Origin: a virus
Lineage: Duplodnaviria > Heunggongvirae > Uroviricota > Caudoviricetes
Virus record (IMG/VR): IMGVR_UViG_2639762982_000006
Direction: 5' to 3' (one strand)
DNA length: 7,374 nucleotides
This document shows, one piece after another, positions 1,693 through 4,600 of this stretch; within the stretch, counting starts at the first letter, position 1; every line of letters starts with the position of its first letter. The position numbers are program-made.

Positions 1693-4600
1693 TTAACAGA
1701 TTCTACGAGTTGTCATTTGTGACAGTATGCTCGCAATCGTAGTGATTACTACCACCAACTGCTAGCTTTCTTCTCTCTAGCTTTTCCTTCGCTTTGCAGT
1801 AAATCTTTACTTCCTGTAGAAATATTTCTATTTGCATCAGCCTCAGACTGAATTACATCTGTCTTAGCTGCTCTCTCCTTCAACTCCTGCTCTATAAAAT
1901 CGTTTTCTCGCTGGACACGAGCCGCTTTTGCTTGCAGTTCGAGTTTCATGCTTTCGAGTTGCAGCTTGCGAAGCTCATCCTCATAAGCTTGATCTCGCTT
2001 CTTGTCATTTGCTAGCTCGGCTTCTCGTTTCGCTCTACGTTCATTTTCTGCAGCAACACGCTGTTTTTCGCGTGCAGCAGCGGCAGATGCTGCTTTTTCT
2101 CTTCTAATACGTTCAGCTTGTGCTTGTTGGCGAATAAGTTCTTTTCTGGCATCCTCAGCTTGCTGCTCTTTAGCTCGCCCTTCATTTTCCGCTTGAGCAA
2201 TAGCAGCAATTTGACTTTGCAACGAGTTAGCCAAGGCAGTGCCTACACTAAACGTAGAAAAGATTAGAAATAAAATAATTTTATTCATAAATTATTTCTT
2301 TTCTGGACAAGTAGCATTTGGCTGAATTCGAGTTTCATTATCTTTAGTTGAAATAAGCACAGCAAGCCCCGTTGTAAACTGGCATGCTTTACCAACTTGA
2401 GTTGAAGTGAACACCTTAGTTCCTTCTTTATAAGTCAGTGAAACACCTTCAACAATTGTTTTATCACTAACCAAAGAACCAGCCGCTGCACCAAGAGCCG
2501 CACCACCAGTACCGCCAGCTACAGCACCCAGTGTCGATGTGCCTTTAACATTATAACCGGCAACGCCCCCAGCAACAGCTCCCAGTACCGCACCAAATGT
2601 CTGTGCCGCTTCTTTATTAGCTTTATTATCAACTTTCACTTTAGCTGGAAGCACAGAGATAATATTGACTGTCTTTGTTTCCTGCTTCGAATTCAATTGA
2701 GCGGTATCATAAACATCGGCAGCATAATCAGCACCGCTAGATTGACACCCAGAAAGAAGAATTGCAGATACAACAAGAGCGCATAAAGTATACTTTTTAG
2801 ACATAAGAATCATCCCAGAAAAACAAAAACCGGCGAGAAGTTACCACGAGAACGGAAAGTAAACAAGAATACTCCCATTGACTTATATCAATTAATCAAC
2901 TTTTTATAAGCTATCCCTAACTTATTGTGTATAGCTGAAAAGTCAGAGACAAGTTCACCATCTGCATTATTTCTTAAGTTAATAGTTTATTGCTAACTTA
3001 ATTTATGTATCGACTATTGATATCCATCTTAAAGTTACAATATCCATCTGCATTATTTTTCATCACAAATAATATATCTATTGCACGACACTAATCTGCT
3101 CTAATAAATTTGTATTTTTAAGTCGCGAATGCTATCTTTTTGCATCATATTGACCTTTTAATCGTTCAGGCTTATAGTTTCGCCGTCGTAGCAAATTCTG
3201 CGACCGGGTTTAGCAGCCTGAATACTTACGCGGACAACCGCAGATTTCCGATATTGCGGTATTTTTGTGTCCGTAAACCACGTTACGCCCGAATTATGGT
3301 GGGGCGTGATGGGGAGGCTTCGGCCTGCTGGTTTCGTAAGTGCCAGTCTGCTAACCCCGTCACGTCCTGCCACCTGTTTAGCAGCGGGTCGCAGGTTGTT
3401 TATCAACTTACGAGGCCGTAACTATGGTTAATGCCAATCCTTGCGCACGCCAAGAATTCATCTGGCGTTTCTATTCCTGCAAAAAACACCACTATCACTT
3501 CGTCATCGCAGCAACAGAAGACGAAGCACGCTCTCAATTGCCTGATGGCCCCTGCATTTTTACTGCCCGTTTTTCAACTAACTCGCGCAATTCACTTAGT
3601 TACTGGAACCTCCCCTTCTCTGCCGACGTTCAGGGGGTTTTATGAAAAAACCTCTCGTCACCCGTAATGACATAGCCGAAGCGATCGCCCTGCATACTGC
3701 CTGTATGCCGACACGGGAGATCCCCGGCGCAATTGCCAACTATTTCATGATAACCAGACGTTTTTATACCCGAACAGATAAGGCTGTGATCAACAGGCTA
3801 CTGATAGCCGAGATCAGGGATTATTTGATTGAACAAGGACGTCTACGTTACGCAACGGTGGCAGCAGAAATGAGAAAGGAGGCACATAGAATGACCAGTA
3901 ATAATTTGAATGTTAAAAAACCAGCATCTGTTGCTTCAGCTACGCCATCACCAGCTGTGAATGTTATCTCCAACACTGGAGACACAATCGACAGCCAGAC
4001 GCTGTTAAAGATGGTCAATGAAGCGCGTAAGTTATGTGGGGAACCAGAGGTTCGGAACAACAAATTCATCAAAAAAATACTCGACGAATTAGAAGGTGAG
4101 GACGGTTACACAAAAAGTGCAACCGTGCCGCCAGGTGGCGGTACGCCTATGGTTGTCATAACCATGACCTACAAACAAGCCCTGCGAGTCGCCGCGCGCG
4201 AGTCAAAAGCAGTCCGCCGTTCGCTGATCGACAAACTGGAAGAATTGCAGCAGGCAAACTCCCCTGCCCCATCGATCCCCCAAACATTACCAGACGCTCT
4301 ACGCCTGGCTGCCGAGTTGGCAGAACAGAAAATGCAGTTGGAACAACAGCTGGTGGCCGCAGCCCCTAAAGTCGATTTTGCCGACCGGGTATCAGCGGCT
4401 AATGGAATCCTGATCGGGAACTTTGCAAAGGTCGTTGGACTTAAGCAAAACGCCCTTTTCTCATGGTTGCGCCAGAACGGCATTCTCATGGCTTTTGGTG
4501 CGCGCAAAAACGTACCGCGCCAACAGTACATCAACGCCGGGTATTTCACGGTGAAAGAAGTGGTGCTGGATGATGAAAATGGCTACCAGATACGGCTGAC

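Follow-up and report, generated by a model that had tools for sequence, protein, structure and literature searches.

Two near-consensus C1 repressor sites, very probably the operators Op51 and Op53, in a P1/P7-type phage-plasmid sequence

Introduction

In the phage-plasmid P1 the repressor C1 binds dispersed asymmetric operators and represses the adjacent promoters, whereby Lxc strengthens binding and C1 is inactivated by Coi and by the Ant1/Ant2 complex (PMC8546580, PMC8198154). The operators, described by Eliason & Sternberg 1987 and Velleman et al. 1987 (as cited in PMC9948254), number 22 dispersed sites with the consensus ATTGCTCTAATAAATTT (PMC8546580), and both physical C1 binding and repression in vivo have been reported for P1 (literature cited by PMC9948254 and PMC8546580). 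At Op53, C1 blocks the promoter P53 and hence kilA, whose expression is lethal, and repL, which is needed for lytic replication from oriL (PMC9948254). C1 also represses the c4-icd-ant operon, where full repression of ant additionally needs the C4 antisense RNA (PMC8198154). Here, we analyzed two sites of this kind in a stretch of 7,374 nucleotides from a member of the Caudoviricetes (IMG/VR record IMGVR_UViG_2639762982_000006), referred to as the window throughout. Judged by sequence and position, the two sites are almost certainly Op51 (Oc4) and Op53 (OrepL) of a P1/P7-type phage-plasmid, and the circuit that they would serve is set out in the Discussion.

Results

Two operator sites in the window

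A search with the C1 operator consensus ATTGCTCTAATAAATTT at up to three mismatches returned exactly two matches in the window, both on the plus strand:

3095..3111, plus strand: copy 1, TCTGCTCTAATAAATTT, 15 of 17 consensus positions (two mismatches); probable C1 operator Op51/Oc4, by consensus, leave-out matrix, P7 identity and orthology to P1 Oc4
4763..4779, plus strand: copy 2, TTTGCTCTAATAAATTT, 16 of 17 consensus positions (one mismatch); probable C1 operator Op53/OrepL, by consensus, leave-out matrix and identity to P1 OrepL and P7 Op(rep)

The same search gave a mean of 0.05 matches in 200 dinucleotide-preserving shuffles of the window. A weight matrix built from the 18 other annotated P1 operators, with Op51 and Op53 left out, assigned 18.4 bits to copy 1 and 21.8 bits to copy 2 and found no other site above 7 bits in the window; on this matrix most annotated P1 operators reach 15–28 bits, with Oc1b as an outlier at 6.4 bits. 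The similarity between the copies continues beyond the operator, 24 of 30 positions counted from operator position 1 being identical, and the pair (3093-3123 and 4761-4791; 31 nt, 84% identity) is the longest direct repeat in the window.

Both sites are followed by genes of the P1 immunity and lytic replication regions:

3292..3377, plus strand: c4 antisense RNA gene, mature 77-nt RNA at ~3298-3374 with loop b′ CGTAAGT (Rfam C4 RF01695, 70.8 bits; alignment with c4 of P1 and P7)
3424..3645, plus strand: icd, cell-division inhibitor of 73 amino acids (aa); open reading frame (ORF), orthologue of P1/P7 icd, Icd-like in the annotation of the source plasmid
3642..4685, plus strand: ant1, 347 aa, antirepressor of C1, with an in-frame ant2 start at 3891; ORF, Pfam ANT/KilAC E = 5e-31, P1/P7 annotation
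4849..5649, plus strand: kilA, 266 aa, with KilA-N and KilAC domains; ORF, Pfam, P1/P7 annotation
5679..6524, plus strand: repL, 281 aa, lytic replication initiator with oriL inside the gene; ORF, P1 repL and rep_origin annotation, PMC9948254

The initial annotation, made from the sequence without database searches, had reported two near-consensus operators with 15 and 16 matches that share an extended motif of ~28 bp, and the consensus search and the repeat analysis agree with it on both counts. It had further placed copy 2 upstream of kilA-repL, which is correct, and copy 1 upstream of ant, which needs amendment: copy 1 heads the c4-icd-ant1/2 operon rather than ant alone, because the c4 RNA gene intervenes, the distance from copy 1 to icd being 313 bp and that to ant1 531 bp.

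Identity with annotated operators of P1 and P7

In the P1 record (AF234172), Oc4 (former Op51, 48140-48156) is a protein_bind feature for “phage repressor C1” that controls c4, and OrepL (former Op53, 49810-49826) is one for C1 that controls kilA and repL; equivalent annotations stand in the P7 record (AF503408) as Op(c4) and Op(rep). Alignment of the operator contexts with P1 and P7 showed that copy 2 is base-for-base identical to Op53 of both phages. Copy 1 matches the P7 operator at every position and departs from P1 Op51 at positions 1-2 only, with TC in place of AA. This difference arises because the window has the P7-type upf50 pair upstream instead of the sim genes of P1; homology to P1 accordingly begins at operator position 3 of Op51. 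On a larger scale, window positions 371-7180 are 98–99% identical to many P1-like phages and plasmids, and positions 3097-6538 are 96.5% identical to P1 (96–98% across P1 and P7).

Conservation analysis showed the 28-nt core of Op51, including the extension, in 82 IMG/VR viral contigs. Among these contigs positions 1-2 read AA (60), TC (12), CC (5), AG (2) or AC (1), and the same two positions are also among the less informative core positions of the P1 operator set. Operator positions 8-10 (TAA) are invariant, and positions 3-5, 7 and 11 are nearly so. Op53 is identical in 50 of the 52 IMG/VR contigs that reach it. As a separate observation, the ~20 nt directly upstream of Op51 are hypervariable between otherwise near-identical P1-type (sim-side) IMG/VR loci, in which the operator and all downstream sequence are invariant. 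Phage D6, a distant P1 relative, was considered as conservation evidence and set aside, its repL-c4-icd region being without a site of at least 9 bits on the P1 matrix; presumably D6 has a different repressor specificity.

Promoters at the operators

Three promoters known from P1 can be placed at these sites:

3109-3115 and 3133-3138, plus strand: P51a (P2c4), −35 TTTGTAT and −10 TATCTT; hexamers identical to P1 AF234172, assigned by homology
3150-3155 and 3173-3178, plus strand: P51b (P1c4), TTGACC-17-TATAGT, downstream of Op51; identical to the P1 annotation
4745-4750 and 4768-4773, plus strand: P53 (PkilA), −35 TGGATC and −10 TCTAAT; identical to the P53 features of P1 X15638 and to PkilA of AF234172

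The −35 box of P51a overlaps the 3′ end of Op51, with the −10 box 22 nt further on as in the P1 record, and the −10 box of P53 lies inside Op53, on which X15638 and AF234172 agree. Each predicted operator would thus overlap the promoter of a lytic or an immunity operon. The −35 box of P53 also overlaps a cluster of three GATC Dam sites at 4728, 4741 and 4747. In a sigma-70 consensus scan of positions 2800-4900, P51b was the sole plus-strand site, with 10 of 12 matches.

The repressor and further operators on the source plasmid

Along its entire length the window matches positions 58282-65655 (minus strand) of the Escherichia coli plasmid pSvP1_F (NZ_MN510446.1, 139,066 bp) at 100% identity; this is the only plasmid record that covers all 7374 window bases. 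The P1-like phage-plasmid pSvP1 has been described from a porcine enterotoxigenic E. coli O157 strain; it acquired a segment of an F-type enterotoxin plasmid via rearrangements mediated by insertion sequences (IS) (PMC6906374).

On pSvP1_F, positions 137497-138348 are annotated as “phage repressor protein C1”, a protein of 283 aa that is identical to P1 C1.100 at 282 of 283 residues. The single difference is G193 instead of C193 in P1 C1.100; we infer that the temperature-sensitive c1.100 change affects this residue. For both Coi, the antirepressor, and Lxc, the corepressor, the pSvP1_F protein is identical to that of P1. A scan of the whole replicon returned 17 sites of at least 15 bits, compared with 0.77 expected from 100 first-order Markov random sequences of equal composition. 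Most of them are orthologues of named P1 operators, namely Op2a, Op2b, Op21, Op82, Op86a/b, Op88, Op94 and Op99a/c/d/e, whereas Op68 and Op72 are not among the matrix hits on pSvP1_F, in agreement with the published dmt/ban deletion (PMC6906374).

The initial annotation had argued that the repressor acts in trans from a gene outside the window, and had named a scan of the full replicon as the check; an intact c1 and further operators were both found there. Its statement that the window itself holds no repressor gene is right for a C1-like protein: a tblastn search of the window with C1 gave a best E value of 0.47, and Pfam assigned no repressor family to any of the ten main ORFs of the window. 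The “c4 repressor” that is present is an RNA and acts on ant translation, not on operators.

Two observations on pSvP1_F concern operators outside the window. A strong operator-like site at 1485-1501, between cre and c8, scores 19.3 bits (18.8 bits at 1485-1501 of P1 AF234172) and is without a C1 operator annotation in the P1 and P7 records; by its sequence it is possibly an additional C1 site before c8. Moreover, a second c4-icd-ant module (3926-5596), in which Rfam detects C4 and a1b1, stands in place of res/mod. Its c4 sequence is identical to that of the window. In front of the module stands a double operator, a near-perfect palindrome of 33 bp at 3926-3958 (3926-3942 on the plus strand, 3942-3958 on the minus strand), with a geometry unlike that of the 28-bp bivalent Op72ab and Op99ab of P1. 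The additional icd/ant homologues, but not the operators, are mentioned by Venturini et al. (PMC6906374).

The c4 antisense RNA and its targets

The c4 gene between Op51 and icd is flanked by the two target regions of its RNA:

3172..3230, plus strand: C4 targets a1 (TTAGCAG, 3210-3216) and b1 (ACTTACG, 3224-3230); Rfam c4-a1b1, 55.3 bits, and P1 alignment
3378..3413, plus strand: C4 targets a2 (3378-3384) and b2 (3406-3413); P1 alignment and perfect complementarity to the C4 loop of the window

The b2 target overlaps the ribosome-binding site of icd, and b1 and b2 are both exact reverse complements of b′. The b′ loop of the window, CGTAAGT, is unlike that of P1 (CACTAAC) and that of P7 (CACAATC), and b1/b2 compensate exactly (ACTTACG), while a′ is of the P7 type. 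Classification of 60 loci (56 IMG/VR contigs, P1, P7, the window and the second pSvP1_F module) gave three b types and two a types; complementarity between b′, b1 and b2 is perfect throughout, and the type of the window accounts for 18 of the 60. The c4 region of the window looks like a third immI specificity.

A truncated third operator and the boundaries of the block

In P1 and P7 a third operator, Orlf/Op55, follows directly after repL and reads ATTGCTCTAATTATAAC. The window retains part of it, a partial third copy that the initial annotation had omitted:

6528..6544, plus strand: Op55/Orlf remnant, ATTGCTCTAAT at 6528-6538 followed by unrelated CTGGAG

The remnant begins 3 nt past the repL stop codon, and homology to P1/P7 stops at 6538, inside Op55, after operator position 11; the full site scores 3.6 bits, the first 11 nt alone 19.5 bits. 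It is followed by a small ORF and a hok/sok module, where P1/P7 have rlfA/rlfB. This truncated allele is the commoner one, being found in 26 of 33 related IMG/VR contigs. The loss of rlfA/rlfB in pSvP1 has been attributed to the insertion of IS186B (PMC6906374); since most relatives carry the truncated allele, the replacement of rlfA/B is older than that insertion.

The conserved block of immI and the lytic replicon thus starts inside Op51 (position 3) and ends inside Op55 (position 11). Among 80 related viral contigs, the sequence joined to the 5′ edge of Op51 is one of two alternative upstream modules; in 33 of these contigs, one of two alternative downstream modules adjoins the first 11 nt of Op55. 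Three ends of high-scoring segment pairs between P1 and pSvP1_F lie inside operators (two distinct P1 coordinates, 48142 and 51585). We considered C1 operators as joints for module exchange among P1-like phage-plasmids, with their dispersed and near-identical 5′ halves serving as short recombination homologies, and hold this to be quite improbable. Between P1 and P7 only one of 24 breakpoints falls in an operator, compared with 0.13 expected (P ~0.12), the Op55 allele of the window is truncated and not a hybrid, and the junction at the 5′ edge of Op51 would be expected anyway from selection on an intact operon.

Other features of the window

The P1-derived segment is flanked by the end of an IS91-family element and by IS186B, and the remaining features are as follows:

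1-370: terminal part of an IS91-family element that interrupts pmgB, with the 3′ end of the transposase gene at 3-185
480-1091, minus strand: tub
1102-1668, minus strand: pmgC
1749-2288 and 2292-2813, minus strand: upf50.0 and upf50.5, P7-type membrane and lipoprotein genes
4693..4722: GC-rich hairpin with a 13-pair stem between ant and Op53, from a terminator scan; likely terminator of the immI operon
6575-6820: small ORF of 81 aa with no assigned function
6833-7157: hok/sok type I toxin-antitoxin module (Rfam sok, 114.9 bits; Hok/Gef ORF 7002-7157)
7181-7374: IS186B, with the inverted repeat CATAAGCGCTAACTTAAGGGTTG from 7181 and the target duplication GGAGAGATCC at 7171-7180

Between upf50.5 and Op51, the AT-rich intergenic DNA contains two exact copies of a 15-nt sequence in direct orientation, CCATCTGCATTATTT, at 2958-2972 and 3044-3058 (86 nt spacing), which may be related to the divergent upf50.5 promoter.

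Discussion

Based on the P1 model, C1 made from the immC region, ~62–75 kb away on the same circular plasmid, would bind each asymmetric 17-bp site and block RNA polymerase. At Op51 it would cover the −35 box of P51a, which reads into c4-icd-ant1/2, and at Op53 the −10 box of P53, which reads into kilA-repL, so that the lethal kilA and the lytic replication initiator repL would be silent as long as C1 is bound. Under these conditions the immI operon would be fed only from the unrepressed downstream promoter P51b, and C4 RNA processed from this transcript would pair with a2/b2 and block translation of icd and, with it, expression of ant. Inactivation of C1 by Coi or Ant1/Ant2 would open both promoters, so that antirepressor is made and RepL fires oriL. 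Our analysis contributes the sequence identity and positional orthology of operators, promoters, c4 and targets as well as the enrichment of operator sites across the replicon; that C1 binds these operators, that the promoters are active and how C4 works is taken from the P1 literature. We infer that the circuit is still active in the rearranged pSvP1_F, because c1, coi, lxc, icd, ant, kilA and repL are intact and unrepressed kilA would be costly.

Several points weigh against this interpretation. Copy 1 deviates from the consensus at operator positions 1-2 (TC, not AT) and has the lowest score among the strong sites; the same sequence is, however, an annotated operator in P7. Neither P51a nor P53 was detected by the simple sigma-70 consensus scan, and their assignment therefore rests on P1 literature and annotation. 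Finally, pSvP1_F derives from P1 but is rearranged, with inversions and deletions mediated by IS elements, and is probably defective (PMC6906374); parts of the circuit could therefore be relics. In its full form, namely that the sites are orthologues of P1 operators but dead ones, in a defective P1 part kept by an F-type replicon for which C1 control is irrelevant, this last objection appears very improbable to us. It can draw on the inversions and on the loss of the dmt/ban region, tRNAs, part of the baseplate module and rlfA/B (PMC6906374), on the absence of Op68 and Op72 from the pSvP1_F scan, and on the IS91-family element (1-370) and IS186B (7181-7374) that bound the window. Yet c1, coi and lxc are intact, with almost no difference from P1, kilA, repL, icd and ant are full-length ORFs, and both operators are unchanged from P7/P1 sequences. 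Moreover, kilA is lethal and repL drives replication (PMC9948254), and an intact but unrepressed kilA-repL should therefore be selected against.

The initial annotation had also read a promoter-like TTGCTC-17-TAAGT into the shared motif, and here we cannot follow it. The element differs from the documented P51a, P51b and P53, is a poor sigma-70 match that falls below a criterion of at least four of six matches per hexamer with A2 and T6 in the −10 box, and is literally present only in copy 2, because copy 1 reads CTGCTC. A wider version would make the shared 30-nt motif a portable sigma-70 promoter, with a −35 TTGCTC, a 17-nt spacer and a −10 TAAGT(C/G), and with C1 bound over the −35 box and the spacer; the repeat would then be conserved because it serves as a promoter. 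We consider it unlikely, even though the TTGCTC of other operators is annotated as the −35 box, at equal geometry, of the sigma-70 promoter P1ban and of the predicted PpmgR and P2pmgT in P1 AF234172. Downstream positions 19-25 of 20 annotated P1 operators are likewise T-rich (0.5–1.1 bits per position versus ~0.1 in the upstream flank), and the pair is, as noted, the longest repeat in the window. At the two sites themselves, however, the −35 box of copy 1 matches TTGACA at three of six positions, the −10 boxes TAAGTC and TAAGTG match TATAAT at two of six and are without the final T, neither site appears in the output of the consensus scan, and the annotated promoters are others, P51a with its −35 box at the 3′ end of the operator and P53 with its −10 box inside it. 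That the matches are simply a chance AT-rich word without regulatory meaning deserves next to no credence: both sites do lie in AT-rich intergenic DNA, and one of the 200 shuffles likewise gave two matches at up to three mismatches, but the mean expectation was far below one, the sites are positional orthologues of annotated operators and near-invariant across dozens of relatives, and the replicon carries 17 such sites instead of the 0.77 expected. Homology and enrichment have already refuted this reading.

What remains is the identification of the two copies as Op51 and Op53. All of this, the two operators and their promoters, C1 and the c4/ant circuit, has belonged to the textbook picture of P1 since the late 1980s, and the source plasmid has itself been published; the sites being long-known C1 operators, the observation is correct but ordinary. 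Nevertheless, a real regulatory element was recognized, and a distant repressor gene correctly predicted, from sequence alone. Of modest practical value is that in a toxin-carrying P1/F hybrid plasmid the lethal kilA and the lytic replicon would still be wired to an intact C1, which bears on the inducibility of such plasmids.

As in lambda-type CI switches, a prophage repressor would occlude the promoters of lytic genes. The C1 sites of P1, however, are asymmetric 17-mers scattered genome-wide, in contrast to the clustered palindromic operators of lambda-type CI, and P1 control is layered, with the corepressor Lxc, the antirepressors Coi and Ant1/2 and an antisense RNA. The immI region of phage P22 (ant, the sar antisense RNA, and Mnt/Arc) is likewise a secondary immunity region with an antirepressor gene restrained by an antisense RNA, although in P22 the local repressors Mnt and Arc, and not the primary prophage repressor at an operator ahead of the operon, control ant, and we know of no sequence relation between it and P1/P7 immI.

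Among the P1-type phages themselves, the window shares with P7 (AF503408) both 17-mers, the upstream upf50.0/upf50.5 pair, c4, icd, ant1/2, kilA, repL and the promoter hexamers. It differs from P7 in the C4 loop b′ and its targets b1/b2 (CGTAAGT/ACTTACG versus CACAATC/GATTGTG in P7) and in the truncated operator after repL, beyond which the small ORF and hok/sok replace rapA/rapB of P7. With P1 (AF234172) it has in common Op53, Op51 from position 3 onwards, the arrangement of P51a, P51b and P53, the three Dam sites and, on the source plasmid, a C1 repressor one amino acid away from the c1.100 allele, whereas Op51 positions 1-2 and the upstream genes, sim in P1 and the upf50 pair in the window, set the two apart.

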